DNA of 61,893 nucleotides from an uncultured Candidatus Saccharibacteria bacterium (GCA_964600695.1 CAZRKK010000006.1:1-61893); one strand, 5' to 3'. Positions 16,047 through 28,953 are shown, numbered from the stretch's first letter. Notes: generated by a model not told the origin, from the sequence alone. Made by a program: numbers and translations.

Positions 16047-16075
16047 TTGCAAAAACCCATGTTCTGTGGTAAAAT
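16047..16075 (+). promoter_or_regulatory. Promoter upstream of tRNA-Glu
   Basis: The -35 is TTGCAA, the spacer is 17 nt, and the -10 is TAAAAT. It lies about 30 nt before the tRNA 5' end. Confidence 0.55.
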
Positions 16076-16107
16076 TCGAGAGTTAACTCAATTTAACAAA
16101 TAAATAA

Positions 16108-16182
16108 GGCGCTATCGTCTAACGGTTAGGACAGGCGGTTTTCATCCGCCAAATCGGGGTTCGATTCCCCGTAGCGCTACCA
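16108..16182 (+). tRNA. tRNA-Glu (anticodon UUC), CCA encoded
   Basis: The cloverleaf was drawn by hand. The acceptor is GGCGCUA/UAGCGCU. The D arm is GUCU-AACGGUUA-GGAC. The anticodon arm is GGCGG-UUUUCAU-CCGCC. The T arm is CGGGG-UUCGAUU-CCCCG, followed by A-CCA. The UCGUCUA...GGAC region resembles bacterial tRNA-Glu. Confidence 0.9.
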
Positions 16183-17689
16183 ACGTTGAATCATCGATAA
16201 CTGAAGCACCCGCAAGGGTGTTTTCATATTGTTTTACTTGGAAGATATGCGACACACTAGGGGTTGTAAATCGTAGATAGTTATAGACCGGTTTTTCTGG
16301 AAAAATTAAACTCATCAACTTTAACTTCTGCCAGTAGTTAGCTCGACTCCAAAACTCCGGTAGTGTACTAATAAAATCAAACACATAGCTTACTGCACGA
16401 TCAATGTCGTACTCCTCTAACTTCGATTGATCTAATTCCAGTTGCTTACTGGTGATCAAATCATTAACTTTAGCAAACTCAATTTTAAAATCTTGATCGC
16501 TAATTAGTTCTTTTTTAATTAAATCTAATACTTTACTCTTCTGATCCTGAAGGCCATTAATTTCTGTTTCAACCTGATTGTGAAAGGTGTTAATGTCTTT
16601 ATACCTGTTCTGCCATACATCTATAATCACTGCTTTAAAAGTATCTAACAGGGGCTTCTTAGGTATTACATCGCCTAGAAAGGCCTTAAATGCCTCCTCT
16701 AGCTTATCTTTGGCAACAGCCTTTGTCGCAGTACAATTCTTGTAATAGCATCTATAGTAACCATACCTACCACCCATCTTACCTATAGAGTAACCAGCAG
16801 TAAGGGGACGACCACAATAACTACAGATCACTAAATGACGAAGAGGAAAATCTTCCGTACTTCTAGCATTAGATTCGGCATCGCCTTTTGTGGACTTCCT
16901 TAAGAGTTGCTGGTTCTTCAGATAAGTACCTTGGTCAATCATTTTTGGTTGGCTACCAGTAAATTCCTGACCTTGATACTTAATAACCCCACAATAGAAT
17001 TTGTTTGTAAGTATTTTATGAATCAATTGAGCCGTGATCGGTTTACCGGATTTATTTCTTAATCCTAACTTGGTAACTTTAGATCTTAACTCTTCCGACA
17101 TATAAATTCCTTTAGAAAACTCAGTTAATACAAACTTTACTAATTCTGAGCAGTCAGGATCTAAAATGATATCTTTCTTGCCGTCAGGGTGAGTAAAGTT
17201 GATATAACCAAACGGTGGACGATGTGGTAGTCTTCCCGATTCGACACAATTAACCATTCCCTGTTTTACTCTCTCACTTCGCATATCGTTATCTAACTGA
17301 GCCACACTTGCCATTATGTTACCTAAAAACTTTCCGGATGATGTTTCGTTGATTGCTTCTGTCGCGGATAAAATATTTATCCCTAAGTCTTTTAAGAAAG
17401 ATTTAATTTCGTAAAAATCCTGAGTATTTCTGGTCAGCCTATCCAGTTTATAAATCACCACAAAATCAATATTATTTTGTTTAGTAGCACAGAACTTTAA
17501 CATGTCCTGTAGACCGGGGCGATCTGTAGTTTTAGCGGATTCCCCTTCGTCAGAAAATAACTTTACAACATCAAATTCCTCTTTGTCTGCATACTTAAGA
17601 CAGACATCCTTTTGGTTATCCAAACTAAAACCCCGCTCAGCTTGATCTGATGTAGAAACTCTATAATATATTACTGCTTTTTTATTCAT
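16142..17689 (-). CDS. Large serine recombinase (integrase); 3' end overlaps tRNA-Glu
   Basis: The resolvase domain starts MNKKAVIYYRVSTSDQAERGFSLDNQ and includes DRLTRN. It also has a recombinase domain, a zinc ribbon (CSYCGRPL...YYRCYYKNC) and a coiled coil. I prefer the ATG at 17689 over the upstream alternative start at 17749. The last 13 codons (..ALRGIEPRFGG) are the antisense of the tRNA T-arm. Confidence 0.85.
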   Translation of the reverse strand: MNKKAVIYYRVSTSDQAERGFSLDNQKDVCLKYADKEEFDVVKLFSDEGESAKTTDRPGLQDMLKFCATKQNNIDFVVIYKLDRLTRNTQDFYEIKSFLKDLGINILSATEAINETSSGKFLGNIMASVAQLDNDMRSERVKQGMVNCVESGRLPHRPPFGYINFTHPDGKKDIILDPDCSELVKFVLTEFSKGIYMSEELRSKVTKLGLRNKSGKPITAQLIHKILTNKFYCGVIKYQGQEFTGSQPKMIDQGTYLKNQQLLRKSTKGDAESNARSTEDFPLRHLVICSYCGRPLTAGYSIGKMGGRYGYYRCYYKNCTATKAVAKDKLEEAFKAFLGDVIPKKPLLDTFKAVIIDVWQNRYKDINTFHNQVETEINGLQDQKSKVLDLIKKELISDQDFKIEFAKVNDLITSKQLELDQSKLEEYDIDRAVSYVFDFISTLPEFWSRANYWQKLKLMSLIFPEKPVYNYLRFTTPSVSHIFQVKQYENTLAGASVIDDSTLVALRGIEPRFGG

Positions 17690-17839
17690 GGTTACTAAAT
17701 TATTTAAACGCAAAGGGCGACCTCTGGTTGATCCGACGCACAAAACCAAAAGGTTATGATTGCTGGCAGAGGCCGCCCTAAAAGCAGCAAGGCAATATAA
17801 AAACCTTTGGTTATAAATTATGCGGGATCAACATCATCA

Positions 17840-18013
17840 TTATACAACATCATTTACATTTTTTCTAGACTGTAGACTTAGATCCTTCTCCCAAAAATCA
17901 AACGAAATATCAGCTAAGACATACATATCTTGCCGGATTTTCTCTATCTCAACATCGGACAAATCCTTGCCATAGTCGTTTAATATTAGTTTGAATTTAG
18001 TTAATGGGATCAT
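17840..18013 (-). CDS. 57-aa hypothetical protein upstream of the integrase, below the track cutoff
   Basis: Hand translation from the ATG at 18013 gives MIPLTKFKLILNDYGKDLSDVEIEKIRQDMYVLADISFDFWEKDLSLQSRKNVNDVV. Its position would suit a directionality factor, but there is no homology evidence. Confidence 0.3.
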   Translation of the reverse strand: MIPLTKFKLILNDYGKDLSDVEIEKIRQDMYVLADISFDFWEKDLSLQSRKNVNDVV

Positions 18014-18031
18014 AAAATTACCAAACGAAAT

Positions 18032-18463
18032 TTAGTCTTCGTTCAACTTTTTCTCATGTTTACATAGGATATTACTTGATTTCATATTTTTGTATTCGTT
18101 TAAAGAACGATAAAAGCTTCGATAAATAGATGCATGATACCTTAAAAGGACGTCAAAAGATGGATTCTTCCTAACAAACATCGTAAATTGATCCATAAAA
18201 TCGCTATCGTCTAAACCAAACTTGGGTTTGCTGATGAATAAAAACAGTTCATTCTCAAGCTTTGAGTACCGCCTTAACCGCCAGTAGTTAATAATTACTT
18301 CTTCTACCATAACCATTTCTAAGGCAGACTCAGGCTGTAATTCGGCGATTAACTTCTTGGCTATTTTATTAAAGGGTCGATTCTCAGCTGGATTTATAAT
18401 TACTTGCTTAGCTAATAAGCCGTGTTTTATTGCGTTGAATTTACTAGTGTTATTATTCGGCAT
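18032..18463 (-). CDS. Hypothetical protein
   Basis: 143-aa ORF that overlaps the upstream ORF by 11 nt, suggesting translational coupling. No recognisable motif. Confidence 0.45.
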   Translation of the reverse strand: MPNNNTSKFNAIKHGLLAKQVIINPAENRPFNKIAKKLIAELQPESALEMVMVEEVIINYWRLRRYSKLENELFLFISKPKFGLDDSDFMDQFTMFVRKNPSFDVLLRYHASIYRSFYRSLNEYKNMKSSNILCKHEKKLNED

Positions 18464-18881
18464 TGATTCTAATAAATTCCTCGGGTTCTAAAATAAAGTC
18501 TTCTAATTGATAAATTTTCCACCCATTAAGCCTAAATCGTAAACCCTCTCTGTCATAGTAGGAATAAGTAATTTTTTTGACTAATGATTGTAATACCTGG
18601 AGCTTAAACCACTCATATCTCCAATTATCACCAAACCTTTGTTGTAAATTTTTTTTAATAACTTTTCTATCTATATGTGCTCTAGACCACGGAACCCTTT
18701 TTGACTCCACAAAAGTGCTCAAACATTTAGGGCAAGCGAATTCACGATCGGTATCAACCCCAAAAGTATGTTCGTTAAGTTTACATTGCATTGTTTTTTT
18801 CTTTCTTATATATACATGCTGCCACTTTACCAAGTTAGGATCACCTGAAGAGAAATAATGAACTTGGCAACTTGGCAACAC
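18453..18881 (-). CDS. Hypothetical protein with a possible Cys4 zinc ribbon
   Basis: 142-aa ORF containing CKLNEH...CPKC. Confidence 0.45.
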   Translation of the reverse strand: MLPSCQVHYFSSGDPNLVKWQHVYIRKKKTMQCKLNEHTFGVDTDREFACPKCLSTFVESKRVPWSRAHIDRKVIKKNLQQRFGDNWRYEWFKLQVLQSLVKKITYSYYDREGLRFRLNGWKIYQLEDFILEPEEFIRINAE

Positions 18882-18918
18882 ATATATAATTAATTAATAA
18901 AAATTCATCTTTACCAAG

Positions 18919-20205
18919 TTAGTCATCAACTTTTGGTTGATCGAACAAATTAACGGCAACCATCCTAAAGGTGTGGCTACGCCCCTTTTTTGATTGTTCA
19001 AGTATCCCAGAATCGACCATCTGCCTTAGGGCTTCCCTACAGTACCTCTCAGCAATATCATGATTTTTAGCCATAATTTTTACAATGTCATTTGTTGTCA
19101 TAAATTCATTGCCCACTATCTGCGGAATAACTAACTTGGCTTCATCCATTTTAGTCGTCATTTCGTCTAACTCTCCTTCATAATTCATCTCAACTTTGAC
19201 AACTTGCATACCCTCTGTACTAGACAGTATGTCTCTAATCCCTACGTTAAATGGTTTAATTTCAATCCCGACTCTGTTTTTTACCTGATGCACAGTAAAA
19301 TACCCTGGATTGACATCACCTTTAATCATTAGTACCATTTCTGCGTTTGCAACTTTGTCCTGACTCCCTAACACATATTCCTTACGTGGTCCACCATGGC
19401 TTCCTCTGTCGGGTTTTCTGTTGTGGTCAAGTAATATGATGACTTTCCCATTATTTTTTAACCTATTAAATCTTTGATAAAATTCCCGAACAGCTCCTGC
19501 ATTATCTTCATCTAATCGCCCAGCGACAGCTCTTAAAGTATCTATAACCACAATCTCAATTTCGTTTTCCTCAATTAACAACTCCAGTGCCTCAAACATA
19601 CCATCCTCTTTTAGGTTTACCTCATGACCTGTAACAATTAGCGGTGCATATTTTGCTGGAATAGAGTCAAAACCTAGAAGTCTACACCTTTTTTGAAGTA
19701 TTTTGGGGCCCATCTCGGCATCTATATACAGGGCTTTACTGCGATAAGTTTTAAAACCCTCATGGGCAAGAAAATGACTACCACAACTAATGCTTTTTAT
19801 AAGTTCAAGAGCAAACCAAGTTTTCTTTTCACCTGATGGTGCTGATATAATCACCACCCCCTGCATAGGAATTAAACTTTGTACCCGCCATTCTTCTTCG
19901 GGGAACCTTAGATTGGAGAGTTCATTCCAAGTCAGCAGTGGCAAATTAAATGAGCCATCACTAGCTTCATCATCCAATATTTTTTTTGACCGTTTTGGAT
20001 AGATACAATCTCTGGAGAAAGTGAAATCTGGCAACTTAGCTACAACTAGACCGTCCCTATTGTAGAGCAATGATTGGAAAAGTGTCTCTACTCCAGGATC
20101 GCTGAGTTCTAAGCTAGGTAACGACATGATTTCATCCTCAGTCAAATTATTAGAATCTATATATTCCATAAAACAAGCACCTGCAGGCCCAGGTTCGTCT
20201 GCCAT
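18919..20205 (-). CDS. RepA-like RecA-superfamily ATPase (AAA_25-type) with C-terminal winged helix
   Basis: The Walker A-like motif is ISAPSGEKKTWFALEL. ALYIDAEMG is present and the Walker B motif is IVVIDTLRAV. LLDHNRKP corresponds to the family's hhHxxK block. The C-terminal region TTNDIVKIMAKNHDIAERYCREALRQMVDSGIL looks like a wHTH. The true start may be the internal Met at 20169. Confidence 0.65.
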   Translation of the reverse strand: MADEPGPAGACFMEYIDSNNLTEDEIMSLPSLELSDPGVETLFQSLLYNRDGLVVAKLPDFTFSRDCIYPKRSKKILDDEASDGSFNLPLLTWNELSNLRFPEEEWRVQSLIPMQGVVIISAPSGEKKTWFALELIKSISCGSHFLAHEGFKTYRSKALYIDAEMGPKILQKRCRLLGFDSIPAKYAPLIVTGHEVNLKEDGMFEALELLIEENEIEIVVIDTLRAVAGRLDEDNAGAVREFYQRFNRLKNNGKVIILLDHNRKPDRGSHGGPRKEYVLGSQDKVANAEMVLMIKGDVNPGYFTVHQVKNRVGIEIKPFNVGIRDILSSTEGMQVVKVEMNYEGELDEMTTKMDEAKLVIPQIVGNEFMTTNDIVKIMAKNHDIAERYCREALRQMVDSGILEQSKKGRSHTFRMVAVNLFDQPKVDD

Positions 20206-20253
20206 AAATGGCCCCGGGGTTTGCAGGTGCTTATCTAGCAGACGAATCGAACC

Positions 20254-20287
20254 AAAATTAAAAATACTGAACTTTATATTCAGTATT
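20254..20287 (-). terminator. Intrinsic terminator after the 20324..20938 gene
   Basis: On the minus strand, the hairpin AATACTGAA-TATAAAG-TTCAGTATT is followed by TTTTAATTTT. Confidence 0.6.
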
Positions 20288-20323
20288 GCAGGTATTTAAA
20301 TATCTACTATTAGCGATAAATTA

Positions 20324-20938
20324 TCACTTAGCCCTAAATTTTCTTCTGCTTATTCCTAGCGCCTTGGCTTGTTCGGTAATAATTCTTTCGATATTTGTAA
20401 GATCGAGGTCTACACCAAATTCAGATATGACGACTTTCCTAATTTCTCTAGTGCTTTTCCCTTCTAGGTTCAGTTGAAATATTTTGGCGTCTCTAGTAGA
20501 TTCACTTTTCACTTTTTTCCTAACTCTACGTAAATTCTCGGGCTTCAGCGAGTACAAAGCAGTCTCAACATCTTTTAGAGTAGTTTTAGGAAAAATAATT
20601 AAGCTATAAATCCTTTCTTCTGTTTCTGGATCAATTTGTTGTCCATTACCATTATCAATAATAGGAGTGTCTGGATCATCAAAGCTTGTACCTTGTAATA
20701 TATAGTCTTGGATAATCATTTCCCACCCAGAATGCTTGTGATACTTAACAGCAAGTTTCGCACTAGCATCCCATACCTTAGCCGTACGACGTCTATAAAC
20801 ACGGTTTTTAGTTAGTACTATACCTAACTGCTGCCTAAGCTGTTCTACGTCTTTAACAAATAAAGGATTATTAAATAATGTTGACAGTTTTTGCTGCAAA
20901 TACTTCTCATCATTCTCTGTTGGTGGATTTGTCTTCAT
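20324..20938 (-). CDS. Hypothetical protein, possible C-terminal HTH
   Basis: 204-aa ORF. The C-terminal region STREIRKVVISEFGVDLDLTNIERIITEQAKALGISRR looks like a small HTH. Confidence 0.45.
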   Translation of the reverse strand: MKTNPPTENDEKYLQQKLSTLFNNPLFVKDVEQLRQQLGIVLTKNRVYRRRTAKVWDASAKLAVKYHKHSGWEMIIQDYILQGTSFDDPDTPIIDNGNGQQIDPETEERIYSLIIFPKTTLKDVETALYSLKPENLRRVRKKVKSESTRDAKIFQLNLEGKSTREIRKVVISEFGVDLDLTNIERIITEQAKALGISRRKFRAK

Positions 20939-21029
20939 ATTTAAATTATGGCATAAAGAGCGTATAATTTAAACATAACTTAATAATTACCTAAACTTAC
21001 AGACTTCTGGCTTGAGCATGGCCTTAAGC

Positions 21030-21122
21030 CCAATGAAGAATACTAAACCCCGCGTTCAGCTATCTTCATTGGTCATACTTGGAAACGAGTATGGAGTCGC
21101 AAGACTCAGCCGGTGTTAGGCT
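21030..21122 (+). ncRNA. Array of four abutting hairpins in the 235-nt gap between the island's divergent modules (structured RNA, or oriT/ori-like DNA)
   Basis: H2 pairs CCAATGAAGA (21030-39) with TCTTCATTGG (21063-72). H3 is CATACT-TGGAAACG-AGTATG (21074-93). H4 is GAGTC-GCAA-GACTC (21094-107) with a GNRA loop. H5 is AGCC-GGTGTTA-GGCT (21108-122). A TATAAT lies at 20963-68. Confidence 0.35.
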
Positions 21123-21173
21123 TTGTGTTTCCGCCAGCAAAAAATGTGACCTAAAAATATTAAAGCATTCAAT

Positions 21174-21740
21174 ATGAAGTTGGACAACTACCATGGAAAA
21201 AAAATTATATTTATCCTACTGATTTCAACATTACTAGCAGGGATTTTTTATTACCTATGGGAAAATCAAAATATTGGCATCAATAAAAAATATGTATTGA
21301 GTAAGTCTGTCAAAAAATATTCAGAACTAATTGAAGTTGGGCTACCTGATCAAGCATATAATTTATATTTAACAACGGATGCTAAAAATCGTGTAACTTA
21401 TAGATTTGAGGATGCCCCTCTTACTGATCAAGAAAAAGAATTAGAACGTATAAGAATCCAAAACTGTCCACGGTACAAAGATGGTCGTATATATAATGGT
21501 ATTATAGATTGGTCTTGTGTTTATGATGGGCCGAAAGAAAAGCAAATCCAGGTTGAAGTATCATCGCTAGAAAATTTTACAAAATATGCTACTAAAAGAA
21601 AAAATGAATGGAAAAATGTACGGATAGACAAAATCATTTTCCCTGGAAAAAACAGAGCTGATGTAAAATTGTTATATAGTAATGGCGATTCTATTGAAAC
21701 ATGGTTTTACATTAATGGTAAATGGTTAAGGGATTTTTGA
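21174..21740 (+). CDS. Membrane-anchored hypothetical protein
   Basis: 188 aa with an N-terminal TM segment (IIFILLISTLLAGIFYYLW). Confidence 0.5.
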   Translation: MKLDNYHGKKIIFILLISTLLAGIFYYLWENQNIGINKKYVLSKSVKKYSELIEVGLPDQAYNLYLTTDAKNRVTYRFEDAPLTDQEKELERIRIQNCPRYKDGRIYNGIIDWSCVYDGPKEKQIQVEVSSLENFTKYATKRKNEWKNVRIDKIIFPGKNRADVKLLYSNGDSIETWFYINGKWLRDF

Positions 21741-21818
21741 CCCAGATGAAACCTATAAATTTTGTGCTTTTGATAGTACGACTAAAAGGAGTATAATTAG
21801 CTTAATTAAGCAAAATAT

Positions 21819-22118
21819 ATGAAAAAAATACTTGTCTTATTGATATTACCTCTTGCCTTGTTGGCTGTAGGTTGCAATAAGGAATCCGGCACAGAGACCG
21901 ATACACTACTACCGGTCAGTTCTACGTCTTCTGATAATACACAGGATAATACAAACTGTGATATTAAAGGTAATATAAATAGTTCAGGCGAGAAAATTTA
22001 CCATGTACCAAGTGGTCAATATTATGGAGTTACTCAAATTGATCGCTCAAAAGGTGAGAAAATGTTTTGTTCTGAAGACGAAGCTGAACAATCTGGTTGG
22101 CGTAAATCAAAACGATGA
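21819..22118 (+). CDS. Lipoprotein with a nuclease-associated C-x-KGNI...IYH...FC...GWR module ('sunset'-type domain as I recall the NCBI name)
   Basis: The lipobox is LLAVGC. The C-terminal module is CDIKGNINSSGEKIYHVPSGQYYGVTQIDRSKGEKMFCSEDEAEQSGWRKSKR. The stop overlaps the nuclease start as ATGA. Confidence 0.55.
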   Translation: MKKILVLLILPLALLAVGCNKESGTETDTLLPVSSTSSDNTQDNTNCDIKGNINSSGEKIYHVPSGQYYGVTQIDRSKGEKMFCSEDEAEQSGWRKSKR

Positions 22119-22765
22119 AACAACGAACAATCTTCAGTTTAATCACTATTGCAGTATTATTATTTCTTGGTTTCAATACAGGATCATATGTCTTACTATC
22201 AAATAAAATTGATAAGCTTCAACGCGTAGCTACCTCTGACTTAATCAAATTAAACAATAGACTAATTGATTTGGGTGCAGATGCATCAAGTATCACAACC
22301 CCATTGAAGACACCAGAATATGGGCAGTTAGTCACTGTCACAAAAGTTATTGACGGCGACACAATAGAGCTAGAAGATGGCGAACGGCTTAGGTATATTG
22401 GTATTGATACCCCTGAAAAAAATGATCCTAGAAAGCCTGTCCAATGTTTTGCAGACAAAGCTACTCAAAAAAATATTACCTTAGTCGAAGGGAAAAAAGT
22501 CAAGTTTTATAAAGACGTAGCAGTTAGAGATAAATACCAGAGACTACTTGGTTATGTGTATTTAGAAGATGGTACTTTTATTAATCTTGAGCTGGTAAAA
22601 ACAGGATTTGCATTTTCATATCCTTACCCTCCTGATATCTCAAAACAAGAAGAATTTAACAAAGCTCAATCAGCTGCAAGAGAAAATAATCTTGGACTAT
22701 GGTCTGGATGCACTATCACAGAGACAAGCACAGGTAGACAACAAACAAATAATGTTATTGATTAA
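22115..22765 (+). CDS. Membrane-anchored thermonuclease (staphylococcal nuclease / SNase family)
   Basis: The SNase pattern is VIDGDTIELEDGERLRYIGIDTPE...RDKYQRLLGYVYLEDGTFINLELVKTGFA...AARENNLGLWS, behind an N-terminal TM segment. Confidence 0.85.
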   Translation: MKQRTIFSLITIAVLLFLGFNTGSYVLLSNKIDKLQRVATSDLIKLNNRLIDLGADASSITTPLKTPEYGQLVTVTKVIDGDTIELEDGERLRYIGIDTPEKNDPRKPVQCFADKATQKNITLVEGKKVKFYKDVAVRDKYQRLLGYVYLEDGTFINLELVKTGFAFSYPYPPDISKQEEFNKAQSAARENNLGLWSGCTITETSTGRQQTNNVID

Positions 22766-22767
22766 TT

Positions 22768-23055
22768 ATGCCGAGTAATATGAAGACAACTATACTAATA
22801 ATTTCTTTGATGTTATTAGCATCAGGTTGCACCTTTTCTACAGAATGGACAGGGTTTTACAACAAGAATGGGAACACAATGGCAGATCCGATTATGCAAG
22901 CTGGATTCAAAGATTCTACATCTTGCCTTACTTGGGCAAAAAGCCAGAAAGAATTATTGCATGATGAGGAGGGAACTTATGAATGTGGTAGTAACTGTAA
23001 AGTCCTAGACTCGACATATGGTACTTATGTCTGTAAAGAAACATTAGATGAATAA
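22768..23055 (+). CDS. Small lipoprotein
   Basis: The lipobox is LLASGC. The mature part of the 95-aa protein contains 4 further Cys. Confidence 0.5.
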   Translation: MPSNMKTTILIISLMLLASGCTFSTEWTGFYNKNGNTMADPIMQAGFKDSTSCLTWAKSQKELLHDEEGTYECGSNCKVLDSTYGTYVCKETLDE

Positions 23056-23061
23056 TAATTT

Positions 23062-23694
23062 ATGTATATAATCAAATCTTACAAAAAACTATTTTTTGGT
23101 TTTACTTTAACAATTGTTTTGGTAATTATTTGCTATTATCTTTCTAGTGAATATGCGAGTCAGAAGGTAATAAAGAATTTTTTTATAGCAGCAAGTAATG
23201 AAAATTGCCAAAAACTACAACCTATACTTAAGTACCGACTATTAAATCATGATATTTTATGTCCTAGAGGTGATGTGGGAAATTTTATGGTGATAGATAA
23301 GGTAGAATACAAAGTTAAAAATATTTTAGGAAGCAAACTGAGCGGGACCAAACAAGTTTTGATTTCTGTCTGCATAGAAACACATGGTGTAGCCGCATGG
23401 AATGAGGGAATCTTTAAAGACTGTACTACTGACCCGAGAATAATTGAATTTGATAGAAAACAATTTAGTTGGCAAACAGATATCAGTCAATTTACTAATA
23501 TTTCTAAGCTTATAAATGAATCAGGTGCCAAACCTGAAAGTTTCGATAGATATTACCAACAATGTTGGGAAAATAGGATAACAGAATTTTCATTTCATGG
23601 CAACTCAACAATAAACTGTAATAATGTGGTTGGTGATGAGATTGAATATTCGATCAGAACCCACAAATTTGTACAGACTGGTAATGCACGGTAA
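23062..23694 (+). CDS. Membrane-anchored hypothetical protein
   Basis: 210 aa with an N-terminal TM segment (FFGFTLTIVLVIICYYL). Confidence 0.5.
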   Translation: MYIIKSYKKLFFGFTLTIVLVIICYYLSSEYASQKVIKNFFIAASNENCQKLQPILKYRLLNHDILCPRGDVGNFMVIDKVEYKVKNILGSKLSGTKQVLISVCIETHGVAAWNEGIFKDCTTDPRIIEFDRKQFSWQTDISQFTNISKLINESGAKPESFDRYYQQCWENRITEFSFHGNSTINCNNVVGDEIEYSIRTHKFVQTGNAR

Positions 23695-23761
23695 TCTTCT
23701 CTTTATAGTTTTTAGAGCATAGCTAAAATCACCCAACCAAACGAATCCTCAACAAACCCAT

Positions 23762-24739
23762 ATGAAAAATCTAATTTTACTACCAATTATTTTTGTACTA
23801 GCCATACTTCCTCACCCCCCTGAAGCCATGGCATATGGTGAGTGTACACAATATGGTATTTGGTCTTACTATGACTCAACCTCTAGAAGCTGTAAATGCA
23901 TGAGCGGGTACATGTTCGGCAAATTCTTAGGATCGGATTATTGTGTTTCTAGAGACCAGTACTGCACAGACAAATATGGTTATAATTCTAAATATGATTC
24001 TCTTACCGGTTCTTGCGGATGCAGATACGGATATATAATGGATGGTGGAAAATGTACTGATGGCAACAGTGTCTGTAGAGCAGATCATGGTTGGGATTCA
24101 GAGTACAATTCACTAAAAAATGCTTGTGGTTGTAGATCAGGATACACGTTTGATGATTCAAATAGATGTGTTAAAAAACAAAATAATGTTTATTTTACCG
24201 TCAAAGAAATTAATACGGATGAGAAGCAAGCCATAATTCGGAGTCAATATGACTATGGCTACTATTTAATCAAATACGGGTACGGCTGCTATTCGTCAAG
24301 CTTTAATCGATATCTAAATGACAGCATCGTTGTCAACTTGGGAACAGACTTTTCAGTAGATACTTTTGATAAAATTGTTTTACAGGATGATAACGAGACT
24401 TGCGATATAATTAAAGTTTCCAGAGCTAATTCCAGCACCACTCTCTATCCTGATGATGAAGATACATCCTCACCATACATACTTAATACAAGTCCGAAAT
24501 TTACGCCAACCCCTAAACCATTAGATAAACCAATAGAACCTGTGAACAACTTATCAATCGAAAAGACCAAACCAGAGTCATTACTACTAAATGTAACTGA
24601 TACAGATGAAGGCAGTGTAACCATAACTAATGAGGAGAAAGGGAATAATACAAATAATATCGAAGCTCAAAAACCCGAAAACAAAATAATCACCTTCTTT
24701 AAAAAAATTGGTGAATGGTTTAAGAGATTGTTTACCTAG
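23762..24739 (+). CDS. Secreted Cys-rich repeat protein
   Basis: It has a signal peptide and three ~37-aa repeats of the form C-x3-(Y/H)G(Y/W)-x-S-x-Y(D/N)SL-x3-C-x-C-x2-GY-x6-C. A Pro/Thr-rich linker and an amphipathic tail (FFKKIGEWFKRLF) follow. Confidence 0.55.
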   Translation: MKNLILLPIIFVLAILPHPPEAMAYGECTQYGIWSYYDSTSRSCKCMSGYMFGKFLGSDYCVSRDQYCTDKYGYNSKYDSLTGSCGCRYGYIMDGGKCTDGNSVCRADHGWDSEYNSLKNACGCRSGYTFDDSNRCVKKQNNVYFTVKEINTDEKQAIIRSQYDYGYYLIKYGYGCYSSSFNRYLNDSIVVNLGTDFSVDTFDKIVLQDDNETCDIIKVSRANSSTTLYPDDEDTSSPYILNTSPKFTPTPKPLDKPIEPVNNLSIEKTKPESLLLNVTDTDEGSVTITNEEKGNNTNNIEAQKPENKIITFFKKIGEWFKRLFT

Positions 24740-24845
24740 CAAAATCTCGAAATTACTTCGTACAATATTTCAACCCTTATATTGTGCAAGAGTACATACT
24801 AAGAGTATTTTCTACCACTAGCGGCCTAAAAAATGGGAATATAAT

Positions 24846-25529
24846 ATGAACCTTAAAGTTAGCCTCGGCAAAGACATTGATAAGCAAGATTATTCAATTG
24901 ACTTTGCCAAACAAAATATTAACTTAACTCTAATTGCCGGCTCAAGTGGCACTGGCAAGAGTGTTTTAGGATACCACATCTACCAGCAACTTGTTAAACA
25001 AAACAGCCCAAACGAGATTACTTTTGTTCTCATAGACAATGTTCATCTAGAGTTTACGCAATGGAACCAAAAATCCCCTTACCTGTACTGCCCTAACATA
25101 ACTGACCAAACTAAAGCCTTAAAAGTTTTAGAAAGTGTCGCAGAACAAATCGACCAAATTAACTCCAGCACCAAACACTATTTTATTCATATCGAAGAGT
25201 GTAACCAATTTGCAAGCGACACAGAGCGAATGAAGCAAATTTTTCAAAAGCTATTCCAAAATAAAAGTGACAGCAAAATCCACCTGATATTTTCCACCAG
25301 TCGTCCATCTAAAGAAATTTTTGCAGATTGGTTATTAGAGATTTCAGATCTAAAAATCATATTTAAACTACCCAAACCCGATGATTACATTACCGTAGCT
25401 GGTGAAGATTTTTCTAATATATTAAAAGGTGTGCCAAGTTATAAAATTGCTTGCCTTCGTGACGAGTTCATTCAACTATTACCATTGTCAGTGGAGGAAG
25501 TTATCTCTGCAGAAAAGTTTAGACTCTAA
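24846..25529 (+). CDS. Minimal FtsK/SpoIIIE-family P-loop ATPase (motor core only, 227 aa)
   Basis: It aligns by eye block for block with the E. coli FtsK motor. [34 protein letters not shown] matches [40 protein letters not shown] matches [25 protein letters not shown] matches the Walker B block. [11 protein letters not shown] matches IHLVLATQRPS. There is no membrane domain and no gamma domain. Confidence 0.75.
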   Translation: [227 protein letters not shown]

Positions 25530-26248
25530 TGACTCATGTACTAAAAAACGTCATCATCCCCTTCCATTCCAGTTATGACGGTAAGAATATAAACAAAGAT
25601 ATTCCTGCCGTAGTTCATCATGGGAATAAAAACGGTGTAGTTATTCTTAACTACCCAGGTGCTAACGGCGATATTGATGGTTATGAAAATAAATACCAGA
25701 AAATGGCTAGTATATTATCCGATGGTGGTCATGGAACAGTGGTGAGATTAGCAAACGAAACTGTGGATAGAATGGACTGGGAAACCGCCACACAAGAAGT
25801 CTTACAACACGCAATCGAGTATGTCCTAGAAAATGGGCAAGAACTATCAGGAAGTGATTCACCTACCTTATACCTAATGGGTTTTTCTGCTGGAGCGAGT
25901 GCTATTGCTTCGATCTGTGGAGTTTACGAGGAAGTTAAAAAAGTCTTACTCATAGCACCATCAGAAGACGCAGGATGGGATGCCATGCATAACAGTCTAT
26001 CTCTATACAAACACGAACTCTACATTACCGCCGGCGAAGACGATACTTATATTGGGATGCACACCGCCCCAAAAATTGATGCAGTAGCTACGAATACCTC
26101 CAAAAAGGAGATAATCACCATACCAAATTGTGACCATCAATTTAAAGGCAGGGAAAATGGTATAATCCTAAGTAAAGCACCTCTCTGGGCTTTTGCAGGT
26201 GACACAAGTTATCCTAGTCCTGAAGGTGGAATGGTGTTGTATGAATAA
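25529..26248 (+). CDS. Alpha/beta-hydrolase fold protein
   Basis: The nucleophile elbow is LMGFSAGAS (GxSxG), with a late His in NCDHQF. The start overlaps the previous stop by 1 nt. Confidence 0.6.
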   Translation: MTHVLKNVIIPFHSSYDGKNINKDIPAVVHHGNKNGVVILNYPGANGDIDGYENKYQKMASILSDGGHGTVVRLANETVDRMDWETATQEVLQHAIEYVLENGQELSGSDSPTLYLMGFSAGASAIASICGVYEEVKKVLLIAPSEDAGWDAMHNSLSLYKHELYITAGEDDTYIGMHTAPKIDAVATNTSKKEIITIPNCDHQFKGRENGIILSKAPLWAFAGDTSYPSPEGGMVLYE

Positions 26249-26258
26249 ATAATCAGTA

Positions 26259-26669
26259 ATGAACATCTACCTAGACATCGATGGAGTTTTACTAACGGAT
26301 TCATTATCCGATCGTGGCAATCCTACACCACACTCTTTGGAGTTACTCAAGTTCCTCACCGAGAATCATACCGTCTATTGGTTAACTACTCACTGTCATG
26401 GCGGTGAAAATCGTGCTCCAGAACACCTCTACCAAAAATTCCCACCGGAAGCTAAAATATATATAGACAAAATACTACCCACAGACTGGGGTACCTGGAA
26501 AACTGATGCCATAGATTTTACTCAAGACTTTAGATGGTTAGATGATGATGTCTACCAGCCTGAATACGATACTCTAGCTAAACATAATTGTAGTGATAAA
26601 TTGATTAAGGTCGATCTAAGGGAAAATCCAAACAAGTTAAAAGATATTATTCAATTATTAAATACTTAA
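26259..26669 (+). CDS. Small HAD-like protein
   Basis: The N-terminal MNIYLDIDGVLL fits HAD motif I (DxDGV). 136 aa. Confidence 0.45.
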   Translation: MNIYLDIDGVLLTDSLSDRGNPTPHSLELLKFLTENHTVYWLTTHCHGGENRAPEHLYQKFPPEAKIYIDKILPTDWGTWKTDAIDFTQDFRWLDDDVYQPEYDTLAKHNCSDKLIKVDLRENPNKLKDIIQLLNT

Positions 26670-26690
26670 CTTTACAAAAGAATCACACTC

Positions 26691-27236
26691 ATGTTAAATA
26701 AAGTAATTATATTCGTACTAGTAATTCTAGTATTTGGTGGGTATCTGTATAAAGTACATCATGTTGATACAAAAGTAGTGCCTGGTGAAGGTGCAGTGAA
26801 AGAAGTAGAATATTATAAACATTGGATTAACGTAAAACTTAAACCAGATGCAAATTCCATTGATTTAGTTGATCTTAAATTATTCCATGGTTTTGATCCT
26901 AAAATTACTACTAATGAAGCGCGCATCAGATTTGGAGAACCATCCAATGTTCAAAAAAAAGAATTTTACGAGGCATATGAATATTCCTTCCCAAATGCTA
27001 GAATTGAGCTTACATTAGAACAAGTCAGCGACGGGACATATTCATACACAGACAAAGGACTTTACTCTTATCCTTATGAAGTTGAATATAGTGAATTCTT
27101 TAATGACAATATTAATAAGTATATTATACCCAATGTAGATGAGACTGTTGTTACTCTAATAGATGATAAAGATGAACCTAAATTTTTAGCTTCTATAAAA
27201 GGCACTAGAATTGACCATATAATTTGGTATAAATAA
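26691..27236 (+). CDS. Membrane-anchored hypothetical protein
   Basis: 181 aa with an N-terminal TM segment (VIIFVLVILVFGGYLY). Confidence 0.5.
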   Translation: MLNKVIIFVLVILVFGGYLYKVHHVDTKVVPGEGAVKEVEYYKHWINVKLKPDANSIDLVDLKLFHGFDPKITTNEARIRFGEPSNVQKKEFYEAYEYSFPNARIELTLEQVSDGTYSYTDKGLYSYPYEVEYSEFFNDNINKYIIPNVDETVVTLIDDKDEPKFLASIKGTRIDHIIWYK

Positions 27237-27314
27237 TAAAAAATCCATCTTTAATAAATTAGTAACTAAATTGTATAGGCACCTTAAAGACATAGTTCGA
27301 TAATTTGCTCCGCT

Positions 27315-27377
27315 CGGTACCCCGCCTTTAGGATATACAAAGGGGTACCGGCAGGGGTGGCTCCCCTCCCCCCTACC
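27315..27377. other. GC-rich palindromic or hairpin element in an AT-rich intergenic region
   Basis: A perfect 9-bp inverted repeat pairs CGGTACCCC (27315-23) with GGGGTACCG (27342-50), 18 nt apart. The hairpin AGGGG-TGGCT-CCCCT (27353-67) and a C6 run follow. Confidence 0.4.
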
Positions 27378-27526
27378 AAGAGTTGTAACAACTATCACGA
27401 CAGCGTCAGTAACAATCTATATACCAGCCTGCAAGATCTGTATTAACGCCTGAAACTCCTTGATTTCCTTGACTAGGGGGTTGTAAAACTTTTTCGTAAA
27501 GACTACCACGCTTAAATTATATATAC

Positions 27527-27556
27527 AAAACACCGCTTAACAGCGGTGTTTTAGTT
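27527..27556. terminator. Bidirectional intrinsic terminator
   Basis: The hairpin is AACACCGC-TTAACA-GCGGTGTT, flanked by A-rich sequence on one side and T-rich sequence on the other. Confidence 0.7.
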
Positions 27557-27574
27557 TTCCAAATAAGAGTTGGG

Positions 27575-28192
27575 CTATATCCGACTTAATGATCCAATTG
27601 ACTCGTTATAGAACTCTGGGAATAGAAGTTGGAGTACTCTATCTAACTCCATCCAAATAGCCTGTTCATTTTTACTAATAGCAATCTGGTCAACAATATC
27701 CCTGGCCTCAACTTCGATATCTGTCAGCAATTGGTGTAGTCGAGATAATTCCATATATTTTTCATTATGTTTGGCCTTTAGTTTATGATGACCAATGTAT
27801 TGATAATGATGAACAGCTTCTTCCCTACCCGCATTTCTCAAATACCTTAGATAGTTAACCTCTCCAAGATCTTGCCCTTTAATCACACCTATTTTTTCAG
27901 TACGTTCCAGTAAAGGAGTATTTAAAGTTTCTAATTTTTTAAAATATTGTATTGGTATATTAATTACTTGCTGGTCAGGGACATAACCGATTGTATCCAA
28001 ATTATCGGAACTTATAAAACTGAGACCATCATCATTCCCGCGACCTAAAAATTCTTGAGCTTCTTGAACCCCAATGGATATCTCGGTAACCATAAGTTCG
28101 ATATCAGAATCTTTTAACCTCACACCTCTTTCATGTAACAGTTTGTATTTTGACTCTGGATTAAAATCTAGATCACTATTTGGTTTATTCAT
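27575..28192 (-). CDS. Hypothetical 205-aa protein (orphan)
   Basis: Clean ORF with GGGGG (28197-28201) as the only purine-rich candidate RBS 5 nt upstream, plus its own promoter and terminator. No recognisable motif. Confidence 0.55.
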   Translation of the reverse strand: MNKPNSDLDFNPESKYKLLHERGVRLKDSDIELMVTEISIGVQEAQEFLGRGNDDGLSFISSDNLDTIGYVPDQQVINIPIQYFKKLETLNTPLLERTEKIGVIKGQDLGEVNYLRYLRNAGREEAVHHYQYIGHHKLKAKHNEKYMELSRLHQLLTDIEVEARDIVDQIAISKNEQAIWMELDRVLQLLFPEFYNESIGSLSRI

Positions 28193-28225: not shown

Positions 28226-28254
28226 ATTATACAGAATCAAGGGTAGTTTGTCAA
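28226..28254 (-). promoter_or_regulatory. Consensus sigma-70 promoter of 27575..28192
   Basis: Read on the minus strand: the -35 is TTGACA (28254-28249), the spacer is 17 nt, and the -10 is TATAAT (28231-28226). Confidence 0.7.
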
Positions 28255-28325
28255 TGTCAGCCTTTGGTAAACCTCCCTTACCAAAGCCAGATAAGTTTTC
28301 CACCTGTCTTGTTTTGGTCTACCAA
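28250..28325. repeat. Copy A of a 76-nt duplicated promoter-upstream module
   Basis: GTCAATGTCAGCCTTTGGTAAACCTCCCTTACCAAAGCCAGATAAGTTTTCCACCTGTCTTGTTTTGGTCTACCAA aligns with copy B. The 40-nt core AAACCTCCCTTACCAA-N-GCCAGATAAGTTTTCCACCTGTCT is identical apart from one position. Confidence 0.8.
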
Positions 28326-28390
28326 TAAAAAAATTAAAACGCCTGTTTGGGTGTTTTTGATTTGGTTTTATATATGCGAAAATGGTTTTC

Positions 28391-28458: not shown

Positions 28459-28953
28459 TTAACCTAAGGCAGTTATTGCAACCTCTTGCTTGGCTACCTC
28501 TAATGCTAAGTCTTCCCAACGGCATATACTAAAAGTTGGGTGATCCTCTCCGATGGCTTGCAGAACTTCCTTAGTTTGTTCGAGCCAACGTTCATCTTCT
28601 TGAACAAGACCAGAGGTACGAGCACATTTTAACGAAGCCTCTTTATCTAAGAAAAGGGCAACAATGCGTCCACTCTGTTCTCCCCACCACACTGTATTAC
28701 ACTTTTCTATTTTACGCTGGAACGATGTGATACCACCACCCTCCGGAATGAACTCGATCAAACGAACACCAACTGACATCATTGGACCACTGAATGTTCT
28801 ACCGACAGGTGAAGTTTTACCAACCGATTCAAAAATACATTCTGCGATTGGTTGATACCCACCATGACCGTCATTAGCTTTAACCGAATAAGTACCCCCA
28901 AGAGTTACTGCAAAAAATTCTTGCAACTGATTATCTCTATTATTATCTTCCAT
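28459..28953 (-). CDS. Hypothetical 164-aa protein (orphan)
   Basis: Clean ORF with GGAGGA 5 nt upstream, plus its own promoter and terminator. No recognisable motif. Confidence 0.55.
   Translation of the reverse strand: MEDNNRDNQLQEFFAVTLGGTYSVKANDGHGGYQPIAECIFESVGKTSPVGRTFSGPMMSVGVRLIEFIPEGGGITSFQRKIEKCNTVWWGEQSGRIVALFLDKEASLKCARTSGLVQEDERWLEQTKEVLQAIGEDHPTFSICRWEDLALEVAKQEVAITALG

Follow-up and report, generated by a model that had tools for sequence, protein, structure and literature searches.

An island next to tRNA-Glu in the window, by which we mean the entire 61,893-nucleotide stretch of DNA analysed here, raises the question of whether an FtsK-like ATPase encoded within it transfers the island between cells as double-stranded DNA, in the manner of actinomycete integrative conjugative elements (AICEs), or whether the protein has a different role. 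A preliminary description had proposed such an AICE-style element. The part of this proposal that concerns an integrated tRNA-associated element with its own integrase and replication helicase has stood, whereas a single TraB-like motor acting together with a clt locus is not supported. On balance, and with moderate confidence, we regard the island as an integrative, probably replicative element of Patescibacteria that carries a secretome operon and a conflict cassette composed of the ATPase, here termed mini-FtsK, and a HAD-like protein. The CPR-like genomic background suspected at the outset is supported by the flanking proteins TrxB, YchF and EF-P, whose best genome matches are Patescibacteria MAGs (66-75% amino-acid identity).

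Integration at the 3' end of tRNA-Glu

The features at the two ends of the island are as follows:

16108..16182, plus strand: tRNA-Glu(UUC), with the attB half-site at its 3' end (ARAGORN; Rfam tRNA 61.4 bits)
16177..16183: left CTACCAA core copy, crossover region of attL (three-way junction alignment; blastn break points)
16203..16224, plus strand: terminator-like hairpin in the P' arm of the element (terminator scan)
27575..28192, minus strand: 205-aa ORF (ORF call)
28248..28330: copy 1 of an 83-nt repeat, internal and resembling an attP P arm (repeat family D1, 86% identity)
28459..28953, minus strand: 164-aa ORF between both repeat copies (ORF list)
29034-29116: copy 2 of the 83-nt repeat, P arm of attR (repeat search; junction alignment)
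29105-29111: right CTACCAA core copy, end of the attR P arm (junction alignment)

The target of integration is the 3' end of tRNA-Glu(UUC). This site is unoccupied in L098 (GCA_044227685.1), a close relative whose YibE/F protein is 95% identical to that of the window and where tRNA-Glu is separated from the YibE/F stop by 14 nt, thus defining the block in the window as an insertion. Both flanks are colinear with the window, and its tRNA-Glu is 97.9% identical to the empty-site region (blastn). The empty site is exact in this relative, and the comparison with an island-free locus, which had been recommended for defining the ends, provided precise blastn break points that place the inserted block at 16184-29104 (12,921 bp). 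The extent of 16108-27400 initially assigned to the island had to be corrected accordingly, with the right end located 1.7 kb further to the right, and the block now takes in the minus-strand ORFs of 205 and 164 aa and both copies of the 83-nt repeat. In a three-way alignment of left junction, empty site and right junction, it is bounded by the 7-nt repeat CTACCAA. The same tRNA-Glu contains a 1.9-kb degraded remnant with a C-terminal integrase fragment in a more distant relative (L116, YibE/F 80% identical), and the two loci together bear out the described association of the island with this tRNA.

The hairpin at 16203..16224 begins 20 nt past the tRNA and would substitute for the native tRNA terminator hairpin, which is now found at 29119-29131. 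The attP site of the excised element is reconstructed as ...CCACCTGTCTCGAGATGGT-CTACCAA-CGTTGAATCATCGATAACTG..., and neither an excised circle nor an attP junction was seen in the viral contigs searched. At the right end, repeat copy 1 contains its own CTACCAA (28319-28325) and precedes a hairpin with T-run (28336-28357). This copy encodes a peptide resembling the integrase tail (TGGKLIWLW*), and past the core there is a weak resemblance to P'. The promoter of the 205-aa ORF (TTGACA-17-TATAAT, 12/12 consensus matches, 28254-28226) is located at the end of this copy and that of the 164-aa ORF (TTGACA-17-TATAGT) at 29040-29012. The latter ORF is absent from L098 and is possibly the remnant of a second element copy. 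Since two P-arm copies are present, the island may be composite.

A core module shared with other Patescibacteria elements

The minus strand encodes the integration and replication module:

16142..17749, minus strand: large serine recombinase (integrase; Pfam Resolvase, Recombinase, Zn_ribbon_recom)
17840..18013, minus strand: 57-aa ORF with motif DYGKDLS, directly preceding the integrase gene (conserved position)
18032..18881, minus strand: two core ORFs of 143 and 142 aa (tblastn)
18919..20205, minus strand: RepA-like AAA_25 ATPase, putative replicative helicase (PF13481, 6e-24)
20324..20938, minus strand: 204-aa ORF, first in the module, with HTH-like C-terminus (conserved in L014)

Pfam and PHROG searches confirm the serine integrase and the RepA-like ATPase of the preliminary description. 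The integrase matches Resolvase (2.6e-36), phrog_95 integrase (1e-87) and CcrB/XisF-like proteins (NCBIfam), and its translation probably begins at the MNKK codon (17686). Its ORF crosses the crossover, and a reconstruction of the tail identified the last 13 codons as tRNA complement in the integrated state. The 57-aa ORF is a candidate regulator or directionality factor, and ORFs of 45-47 aa hold the same position in L010, L014, L015 and L099. The RepA-like protein carries a wHTH-like tail at its C-terminus and matches primase/helicase families in PHROG, and some of its homologs are fused to Prim-Pol/PriCT domains. In the mechanism that we envisage, the recombinase would excise and integrate the element via attP, and the helicase would, as suggested by homology, replicate the excised circle.

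This core, consisting of RepA, ORFs of ~145, ~142 and ~47 aa and a serine recombinase, is conserved in L010-L017, where the 143- and 142-aa ORFs, which have no Pfam or PHROG match, show 61-96% identity (tblastn). It recurs in other Patescibacteria contigs with integrases swapped and with different cargo. The contig L014 is 92% identical to the window at the DNA level over 18018-23718, whereas its integrase, which also adjoins a tRNA, is only 23% identical. The 204-aa ORF, for which Pfam, PHROG and NCBIfam contained no family match, shows 93-100% identity in the same contig.

Control region and plus-strand cargo

The divergent control region and the genes on the plus strand comprise:

20988..21107, plus strand: LOOT RNA (Rfam RF03000; cmscan 66.5 bits, gathering score 46.4)
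21174..24739, plus strand: six-gene operon whose products are secreted or membrane-anchored (N-terminal hydrophobic segments)
24846..25529, plus strand: mini-FtsK, 227 aa, stand-alone FtsK beta (RecA-like) domain ATPase (PF01580, FtsK_SpoIIIE, 6.7e-14)
25529..26248, plus strand: alpha/beta-hydrolase-like protein, 239 aa (weak DLH and BD-FAE matches)
26259..26669, plus strand: HAD-like protein, 136 aa (motifs DxDGV...T...K...DD; weak HAD_SAK_2 match)
26691..27236, plus strand: 181-aa ORF with N-terminal hydrophobic segment (ORF call)

The LOOT RNA is located 67 nt upstream of the first plus-strand gene and near a promoter-like sequence (TTTAAA-17-TATAAT at 20940-20968). Full-length matches well over the gathering score are found in six loci (the window and the related L014, L015, L009, L004 and L099), where the RNA is consistently found in the control region of Patescibacteria islands that carry an integrase or defence genes. 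The literature searched contained nothing on the genomic context or function of this orphan RNA. We infer that it is part of the control region of the element, where it may serve as leader or sRNA of the plus-strand operon or be tied to replication control.

The genes downstream would constitute the cargo of the element. The six products of the operon (188, 99, 216, 95, 210 and 325 aa, the last Cys-rich) each contain one N-terminal hydrophobic segment, as does the 181-aa ORF. The 216-aa protein is a staphylococcal-type nuclease (SNase, PF00565 8.6e-26; thermonuclease NucI-like in NCBIfam). The ORFs in 21174-23694 show 95-98% identity in L014. The small membrane proteins, which had been considered as spread-like factors, look like exported proteins, including the SNase, and unlike Spd-type proteins. 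The remaining cargo is provided by mini-FtsK, the hydrolase and the putative HAD-like protein, whose assignment is suggested by its motifs and a HAD_SAK_2 Pfam match with an E-value of only 0.016. The L010 element encodes homologs of the hydrolase (65% identical) and the HAD-like protein (84%), and the right half of the island thus belongs to the gene pool of these elements. Another hydrolase homolog adjoins a distant mini-FtsK in L113.

Mini-FtsK and its family

The presence of an FtsK-like ATPase is evident from the PF01580 match and from an AF2 model (pLDDT 91), for which Foldseek ranked FtsK motor domains first (TMq 0.80-0.85). Its motifs are intact and include Walker A (GSSGTGKS), Walker B (HIEE) and STSRP as counterpart of the FtsK arginine-finger motif ATQRP. 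In contrast, profile, fold and hydrophobicity searches revealed neither a TM segment nor an alpha or gamma/wHTH domain. By sequence and fold the protein is nearest to cellular FtsK, with matches to canonical FtsK at E 1e-8 and weaker ones to Streptomyces plasmid proteins (E 6e-4 at best). In terms of similarity it thus groups with chromosomal FtsK, an outcome that the preliminary description had named as speaking against its TraB-like interpretation.

The family has ~57 representatives, and the loci compared illustrate its independence from the core. Most homologs have neither integrase nor RepA within 10 kb, RepA co-occurs with mini-FtsK in the window only among the loci compared, and mini-FtsK is missing from the related RepA/integrase elements L010 and L015. 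In L001 and L002, mini-FtsK is 95% identical and its flanks are unrelated. A HAD-like protein is found beside mini-FtsK in 11 loci, with mini-FtsK identities of 29-100% and variable gene order; both are fused once, in P0054, and L111 contains a HAD-HD fusion. Most mini-FtsK homologs adjoin restriction or defence genes, and their neighbours include type I, IIG and III RM systems, GmrSD, Gabija-like, OLD+UvrD, Mrr, RT and PD-(D/E)XK proteins. PADLOC returned only weak matches, to mad8 and SspH, and no strong match of the mini-FtsK/HAD architecture to any of its models, and we know of no described system with this architecture.

The mini-FtsK/HAD pair is an accessory, horizontally shuffled module, most likely with a role in DNA-level conflict. 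In such a role, mini-FtsK would be an ATP-driven motor that engages dsDNA and is functionally linked to phosphoesterases or nucleases, serving either defence or counter-defence in the manner of 'HerA/FtsK capture'. A recruitment of FtsK-clade ATPases into anti-invader systems has published precedent (PMC10853773). It counts against this assignment that mini-FtsK of the window has no directly adjoining nuclease, the SNase being secreted and encoded 2 kb upstream, and guilt by association would fit a defence gene and a conserved mobility gene of defence-cargo islands alike.

Alternative explanations

In an AICE-style mechanism, a mini-FtsK hexamer would pump the double-stranded circle into a neighbouring cell after excision and replication, with the small membrane proteins encoded in the island providing anchoring and DNA recognition in trans. 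We consider this improbable, despite the joint presence of integrase, replication ATPase and FtsK-domain ATPase on an inserted tRNA-adjacent block, whose 12.9 kb is covered by the AICE size range as far as the cited text indicates (PMC2440964), the intact ATPase motifs, and the failure of a Pfam search to detect a relaxase, T4CP or VirB4 in the island. The same mechanism draws support from relatives with multi-pass TM domains or an FtsK alpha domain, from family members with membrane anchor (P0078, P0073, P0069 and P0059), which would suit a trans-membrane DNA pump, from a membrane protein with FtsK gamma wHTH domain encoded in the L015 element, and from L009, which repeats the layout of tRNA, integrase, LOOT, cargo and mini-FtsK; in these two loci, the window and L009, a LOOT RNA precedes mini-FtsK on the same strand within a tRNA-adjacent island that carries an integrase. 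However, mini-FtsK of the window itself lacks the domains for anchoring and DNA recognition, its similarity to cellular FtsK exceeds that to FtsK-like proteins of actinomycete plasmids, and neither its absence from sister elements nor the position of most homologs away from integrase or RepA would be expected of a backbone gene. Moreover, TraB systems have no counterpart to the conserved HAD-like pairing and fusion, the small membrane ORFs resemble exported proteins (one N-terminal signal/anchor; one nuclease), and no cluster of 7-, 8- or 9-mers in 16000-28500, including the anticipated clt/TRS-like 8-bp repeats, exceeds shuffled controls. Mini-FtsK looks more like cargo common to defence islands than like a conjugation pump, and a function as conjugation pore of the element is unlikely. 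Doubtful as well is a composite island, in which the integrase/RepA element and the mini-FtsK/hydrolase/HAD block have accreted separately at a tRNA-Glu hotspot and where the FtsK-like gene would not be mobilised by the integrase of the window. The two P-arm/CTACCAA copies at the right end (28248-28330 and 29034-29116) do imply that no fewer than two events related to integration took place, the site has been targeted repeatedly, as illustrated by its empty and remnant-bearing versions, the contig L014 shares only 18018-23718 before it breaks, and mini-FtsK is found elsewhere without the core. Yet the only internal att-like site (28319-28325) is to the right of the cassette, which places the latter inside a larger unit extending from attL to copy 1, the interval 16184-28248 contains no additional tRNA fragment or P arm with CTACCAA, and the hydrolase and HAD genes accompany the RepA/integrase core in L010.

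Two further proposals appear still less probable. CPR bacteria are auxotrophic for nucleotides, and the island could help a bacterium unable to make its own by scavenging, with the secreted SNase degrading host or environmental DNA and mini-FtsK, HAD and hydrolase, in relatives also HD, aiding DNA import and nucleotide dephosphorylation. A secreted nuclease encoded on the same strand of the island as putative phosphoesterases, together with the existence of membrane-anchored mini-FtsK relatives, would agree with this very unlikely scenario, but the cassette elsewhere resides beside RM and defence genes and not beside SNase-type nucleases or transporters, SNase and mini-FtsK are unlinked in other loci, and to our knowledge no uptake system uses an FtsK beta domain. 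We give hardly any credence to an integrated non-tailed virus, inovirus-like or membrane-containing, in which mini-FtsK would be the FtsK-HerA-type enzyme for morphogenesis or packaging and the small TM proteins would be structural components. Inoviruses, which have been predicted to infect CPR bacteria, have an FtsK-HerA ATPase (pI) as their marker (PMC6813254), and the island is small with many short one-TM ORFs and its own integrase and replication protein. However, mini-FtsK has no Zot/pI match in Pfam or PHROG, and its Foldseek TMq is 0.51 to Zot and ~0.6 to the A32/B204 packaging ATPases compared to the values for FtsK given above. In addition, pattern scans of IMG/VR retrieved no relative of mini-FtsK or RepA, the TM ORFs, one of them an enzyme, measure 95-325 aa as opposed to the 30-90 aa of coat proteins, and a capsid-like protein was not detected in the island.

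Relation to known systems

With its Resolvase, Recombinase and Zn-ribbon domains, the recombinase resembles those of serine-integrase genomic islands and integrative plasmids, such as SCCmec Ccr, XisF of the fdxN element and the enzymes of phiC31-type prophages, with which the element also shares a short core identity confined to the ends and an integrase gene that adjoins attP. Unlike these systems, the element is inserted at the CCA end of a tRNA gene and brings a putative replacement terminator, the C-terminal tail of its integrase differs between integrated and excised states, and integrases are exchanged among otherwise 92% identical elements.

The resemblance to AICEs concerns a 10-17 kb element at a tRNA 3' end with its own recombinase and replication protein, and an FtsK-domain ATPase in the absence of T4SS or relaxase. 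In contrast, the host is one of the Patescibacteria instead of a mycelial actinomycete, an AAA_25 helicase takes the place of a rolling-circle Rep, the FtsK protein of the window consists of a 227-aa beta domain with no TM or wHTH region and has no accompanying clt repeats, and its gene is accessory in the element family and coupled to a HAD-like enzyme.

With 'HerA/FtsK capture' systems (DndH/SspH and related ones; Aravind lab, PMC10853773), the cassette shares an FtsK-clade ATPase in defence islands that is apparently derived from cellular FtsK and whose relatives adjoin RM systems and nucleases of the PD-(D/E)XK or Mrr type. It is distinguished from them by the stand-alone minimal domain of mini-FtsK and by its constant partner, which is a HAD-like protein (with or without HD and alpha/beta hydrolase) and not an REase.

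Insertion of the element at a tRNA-Glu gene

The ends of the island are defined by an empty site in the related contig L098 (GCA_044227685.1), which was found via homologs of the flanking YibE/F and whose own YibE/F is 95% identical to that of the window. Gene order in L098 agrees with that of the window to the left and right of the island, with FA-desaturase-like, VIT1 and YibE/F genes on one side and genes for a 92-aa repressor, TrxB and GdhA through to YchF and a serine recombinase on the other, and its tRNA-Glu lies merely 14 nt from the YibE/F stop. The blastn alignments break at the end of window 15711-16183 (L098 7187-6718, 97.9% identity) on the left and at the start of window 29105-30316 (L098 6724-5510, 90.9% identity) on the right. 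In a three-way alignment the core CTACCAA is single in the empty site but found at both ends of the block in the window (16177-16183 and 29105-29111), which thus delimits the element to 16184-29104 (12,921 bp). The preliminary description had placed an island at tRNA-Glu between 16108 and 27400; the insertion is real, whereas the right end had been set 1.7 kb too short. Neither a displaced tRNA fragment nor a long direct repeat was found in the window as a marker of the ends, as expected for a serine integrase, and the ends were taken from the empty site. As judged from its sequence, the integrase is likely to excise the element from the chromosome.

A second relative, L116, whose YibE/F is 80% identical to that of the window, contains a 1.9-kb insert between YibE/F and the same tRNA-Glu, which includes a fragment of the C-terminus of an integrase and thus illustrates that this integration site has been used repeatedly. 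In a search of genome contigs with TrxB, the nearest genomes (66-68% identity) have no tRNA-Glu beside TrxB and are uninformative for the ends. The flanking housekeeping genes best match Patescibacteria MAGs at 66-75% amino-acid identity, in line with the CPR-like background originally proposed. The TrxB ortholog of L116 (9070-11262, 730 aa) shows a LAGLIDADG match between its two Pyr_redox halves and probably contains an intein. A second large serine recombinase is located elsewhere in the window at 5443..7074, where it follows 764-aa and 388-aa ORFs and abuts ychF; it is also present in L098 and shares 80% DNA identity with the recombinase in the mini-FtsK-bearing island L009, and the region 956-7074 is possibly another, older integrated element.

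Gene content and a LOOT RNA in the control region

The gene inventory initially assigned to the island, with tRNA-Glu, a serine integrase, a RepA-like ATPase, an FtsK-like motor and several small membrane or secreted proteins, was correct, and all of its components were located:

16108-16182: tRNA-Glu(UUC), the sole tRNA in the window (ARAGORN)
16142..17749, minus strand: large serine recombinase (integrase), 535 codons, with three domains and a strong PHROG integrase match
Following the integrase, before RepA: three small ORFs
18919..20205, minus strand: AAA_25 'RepA-like' ATPase (RepA), 428 aa, with domain and PHROG matches, then a 204-aa ORF
20988-21107, plus strand: LOOT RNA (RF03000)
From 21174, plus strand: gene array starting with six ORFs
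24846..25529, plus strand: FtsK_SpoIIIE protein (mini-FtsK), 227 aa
25529..26248, plus strand: alpha/beta-hydrolase-like protein, 239 aa
26259..26669, plus strand: HAD-like protein, 136 aa, then a 181-aa ORF

In the integrase, PF00239, PF07508 and PF13408 all exceed their cut-offs and define an N-terminal resolvase catalytic domain, a recombinase domain and a zinc ribbon. Homologs of RepA are in some cases fused to Prim-Pol, and a role of this protein in replication of the element is predicted from its sequence. Canonical AICEs contain a dedicated replication module with a rolling-circle Rep (PMC3429521); no such Rep was found in the island, where the putative replication protein is the AAA_25 RepA-like helicase. 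The first six ORFs of the plus-strand array each encode a protein with a single hydrophobic segment at the N-terminus, and an SNase-family nuclease is among these proteins.

Both arms diverge from an intergenic region of 236 nt, which harbors the LOOT RNA (66.5 bits compared to a gathering threshold of 46.4, model positions 1-121, Rfam) 67 nt upstream of the first plus-strand gene. LOOT was detected at six loci with scores of 62-87 bits, which besides the window comprise L014 (2612-2731), L015 (9218-9330), L009 (5598-5717), L004 (14080-14209) and L099 (18716-18835), its position in L014, L015 and L009 being equivalent to that in the window. At all six loci, it immediately precedes an operon, and these operons belong to integrase-bearing or defence islands of Patescibacteria. 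This linkage appears to be undescribed. It provides the orphan RNA with a genomic home, the control region of such islands, and may be the first genomic context pointing to its role.

Attachment sites and the repeat at the right end

The integrase ORF spans the core, and in the integrated state the protein ends in ...DDSTLVALRGIEPRFGG*, with the last 13 residues originating from the complement of the tRNA, whereas the tail predicted for the reconstructed circle is ...DDSTLVDHLETGGKLIWHW*. The sequences of attL, attR and the empty site delimit the element exactly and allow reconstruction of a testable attP. Its junction reads ...TTTTCCACCTGTCTCGAGATGGTCTACCAACGTTGAATCATCGATAACTGAAGC..., with an alternative attP that can be built from copy 1 of a repeat at the right end, and the empty attB reads ...GTAGCGCTACCAATAAAAAACAGGG...; a pattern scan of IMG/VR viral contigs for the predicted attP junction returned no match. 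The P' arm of the element contains a hairpin followed by a T-run (16203-16224), which would take over from the terminator of the tRNA, now displaced to 29119-29131.

The repeat consists of two direct copies of 83 nt that are 86% identical (28248-28330 and 29034-29116). Both represent a P arm of attP that runs up to the CTACCAA core, and both encode a TGGKLIW-W* integrase tail; on the opposite strand, they finish with the two best sigma-70-like, near-consensus promoters of the island, which read into ORFs of 205 and 164 aa. A homologous stretch is found at the far end of the related L099 element, and the sequence following copy 1 is weakly similar to the P' arm. A mere duplication of a promoter was considered and dropped, since each copy extends to the core and codes for the integrase tail that the circular form would have. 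Instead, the arrangement suggests a tandem or dimer integration from which most of the second copy has since been deleted, with 28326-29104 as its remnant.

A modular family of elements with exchanged integrases

Contigs with homologs of RepA share a core of RepA, proteins of about 145, 142 and 47 aa and a large serine recombinase, and their divergently transcribed arms vary. L014 (GCA_964532095.1) has 92% DNA identity with window 18018-23718, yet the two integrases are only 23% identical, and that of L014 also abuts a tRNA fragment. From the sequences, this looks like a clean swap of the integrase, and with it of the target-site module. Such swapping between near-identical backbones appears to be undescribed and defines a modular family, where the core is common to relatives and the serine integrases are exchanged. 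In L010, the serine integrase ORF overlaps at its 3' end with a group I intron (14182-14420, minus strand, 91 bits), and the integration target is probably an intron-bearing tRNA gene missed by ARAGORN.

The mini-FtsK is missing from two of these related RepA/integrase elements, L010 (with a 10-kb arm) and L015 (13.6 kb). The arm of L010 encodes homologs of the hydrolase (65%) and of the 136-aa protein (84%) of the window without an FtsK-like gene. L015 was considered as a circular molecule, which was rejected as its two ends are unlike each other in sequence and two different recombinases are present. It also encodes a 274-aa multi-pass membrane protein (5330-6154, minus strand) with a C-terminal FtsK gamma domain (KOPS-type wHTH) and without an ATPase domain.

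A stand-alone FtsK beta domain

The assignment of mini-FtsK to the FtsK/SpoIIIE ATPases is at the level of the domain (PF01580, 6.7e-14). In phmmer, the protein aligns with residues 195-430 of PaFtsK, the beta domain only, and it starts and ends with this domain, without a transmembrane or hydrophobic segment and without a match to FtsK_alpha or FtsK_gamma. In a family alignment, the Walker A motif GxxGxGKS, the Walker B motif HIEE and an S(T)SRP motif, the counterpart of the ATQRP sensor and arginine finger of FtsK, are invariant in 20 sequences. An AF2 model (pLDDT 91) superimposes best on FtsK motor domains (TMq 0.80-0.85, Foldseek), followed by EccC/EssC and the pCW3 coupling protein TcpA and then by HerA and the STIV2 packaging ATPase at about 0.6-0.7. 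Its motifs and the modeled RecA-like fold, which is nearest to FtsK, place the protein in the FtsK clade of the HerA/FtsK superfamily.

The best matches in plasmid and phage searches are canonical FtsK proteins with about 25% identity, and those to Streptomyces plasmids are weaker (tblastn E 6e-4 for the best of them compared to 1e-8 for FtsK). The family HMM ranks canonical FtsK (82.8 bits) above a Micromonospora plasmid FtsK (60.4) and a Streptomyces plasmid FtsK-like protein (48.3), a comparison that serves as proxy for the phylogenetic grouping with TraB/TraSA clades expected of an AICE Tra protein. The best match in the phage database, MT837408.1 (L115), bears the title 'UNVERIFIED: Bacteriophage sp.' but is a piece of a bacterial chromosome rather than a phage, with a full-length canonical FtsK and LolA and MoeA-like genes.

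The close family is small: clustering at 90% identity gives 21 groups, with a length of about 227 aa in almost every case, and a profile search identified 57 representatives at E < 1e-30. In the loci listed here, the neighbors of mini-FtsK include restriction-modification (RM) and related genes:

Genes beside mini-FtsK in comparison contigs
L001: Type I RM, Fic
L002: Eco57I-type RM, GmrSD
L004: PLD-SNF2, Eco57I, OLD-ABC + UvrD, Mrr, UvrD
L005: GmrSD, MmeI-like RM, PLD-SNF2
L006: GmrSD, type I/IIG RM, DUF2779
L009: tRNAs, serine and tyrosine recombinases, LOOT, type III RM
L104: GmrSD, PD-(D/E)XK
L109: GmrSD, reverse transcriptase, PD-(D/E)XK
L111: Type III RM, SMC-like ATPase

The proteins of L001 and L002 are 95% identical and their flanks are unrelated. 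As FA_desaturase and DHO_dh genes are nearby in both contigs, mini-FtsK was considered as a core chromosomal gene beside a hotspot, a reading rejected because in the window it forms part of the insertion that L098 lacks. Defence systems of the HerA/FtsK-capture type encode their ATPase together with an active endonuclease in defence islands. A nuclease-type gene (PD-(D/E)XK, DUF2779 or Mrr) adjoins mini-FtsK in L104, L109, L006 and L004, with RM or GmrSD genes around; no nuclease of these types is next to it in the window, and PADLOC gave no strong match. Co-occurrence with RepA is confined to the window, and a serine integrase within 10 kb to the window and L009. SAM riboswitches were detected near three of the islands: those of L002 (1966-2107, minus strand) and L005 (1-90, minus strand) go with metK, which marks the far edge of the RM island, whereas that of L004 (8321-8432, plus strand) is oddly located directly upstream of a string of genes for 139-aa and 330-aa proteins, mini-FtsK, Mrr and UvrD.

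The recurrent partner is the 136-aa protein, which contains HAD-type motifs and a weak HAD_SAK_2 match and for which the PDB yielded no significant match in a profile search. It adjoins mini-FtsK in 11 loci, in either gene order and across mini-FtsK identities of 29-100%, and is fused to it in P0054 and to an HD domain in L111. Multi-pass transmembrane regions at the N- or C-terminus occur in some other family members, as does an FtsK alpha domain at the C-terminus; the variants P0054, P0059, P0078, P0073 and P0069 comprise the HAD fusion, a permuted beta-then-alpha FtsK with C-terminal transmembrane helices and multi-pass anchors. This pairing of a minimal FtsK beta-domain ATPase with a HAD-like protein, which tracks defence islands across Patescibacteria, appears to be undescribed.

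Discussion

The preliminary description had interpreted the island as an element with AICE-style transfer, where a TraB-type FtsK-like motor would act on clt repeats. Its integration and replication half stands, with replication by RepA as a prediction. In accordance with the AICE features that we took as tests from a published account (PMC3429521), a protein with serine recombinase domains is found at an insertion located exactly at the 3' end of tRNA-Glu, and mini-FtsK shares with Tra/TraB an FtsK/SpoIIIE ATPase, at domain level. The transfer half, in contrast, is not supported, since mini-FtsK contains no part for pore formation or DNA recognition, the island has no clt locus with its cis-acting cluster of 8-bp repeats, the gene is not part of the family backbone, being absent from L010 and L015, and its constant partner resembles phosphoesterases. 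The Tra protein of AICEs forms a membrane pore and recognizes DNA, for which it requires transmembrane segments and a C-terminal wHTH, and mini-FtsK has neither. The largest cluster of 8-mers in 16000-28500 amounts to three copies in 600 bp, which is the same as in Markov shuffles, and 7-mers and 9-mers are likewise unremarkable.

We thus consider an AICE-like role of mini-FtsK improbable, although membrane-anchored relatives exist, the L009 island repeats the layout of tRNA, integrase, LOOT, cargo and mini-FtsK, and a neighborhood of this kind is compatible both with a defence gene and with a mobility gene of islands that carry defence systems. A further-reaching version, in which mini-FtsK would power a stripped-down TraB-like conjugation of dsDNA that passes integrative elements between attached CPR episymbiont cells, with anchoring and DNA recognition provided by separate proteins or by fused domains as in P0078 or P0059, appears similarly improbable. 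Somewhat better than even, in our view, are the chances that mini-FtsK is part of an accessory cassette moving among islands and elements, whose neighbors and partners are in keeping with a theme described in the literature, the recruitment of FtsK/HerA ATPases to anti-invader systems (PMC10853773). A viral origin, from an inovirus-like or packaging ATPase, is unlikely: the top matches in a viral structure library are phage FtsK-like translocases, with A32-type packaging ATPases at about 0.6, there is no sequence match to Zot and its TMq is 0.51, the transmembrane ORFs of the island encode 95-325 aa compared to the single-TM coat proteins of 30-90 aa expected for an inovirus, and IMG/VR pattern scans for mini-FtsK and RepA returned none. 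A role in nucleic-acid salvage would be speculative.

Mobile elements of CPR/Patescibacteria are poorly charted, and in our searches of the literature we came across no description of either the mini-FtsK/HAD cassette or conjugation of the FtsK type in Patescibacteria. If the cassette acts in defence or counter-defence, it would add a new architecture to the theme of 'HerA/FtsK capture'. If it were instead a motor for DNA transfer, it would constitute the simplest conjugation apparatus known and extend FtsK-type conjugation beyond Actinobacteria to the smallest known bacteria. As for the element, it adds a new member, from a phylum that has received little study, to the familiar class of serine-integrase integrative and replicative elements.
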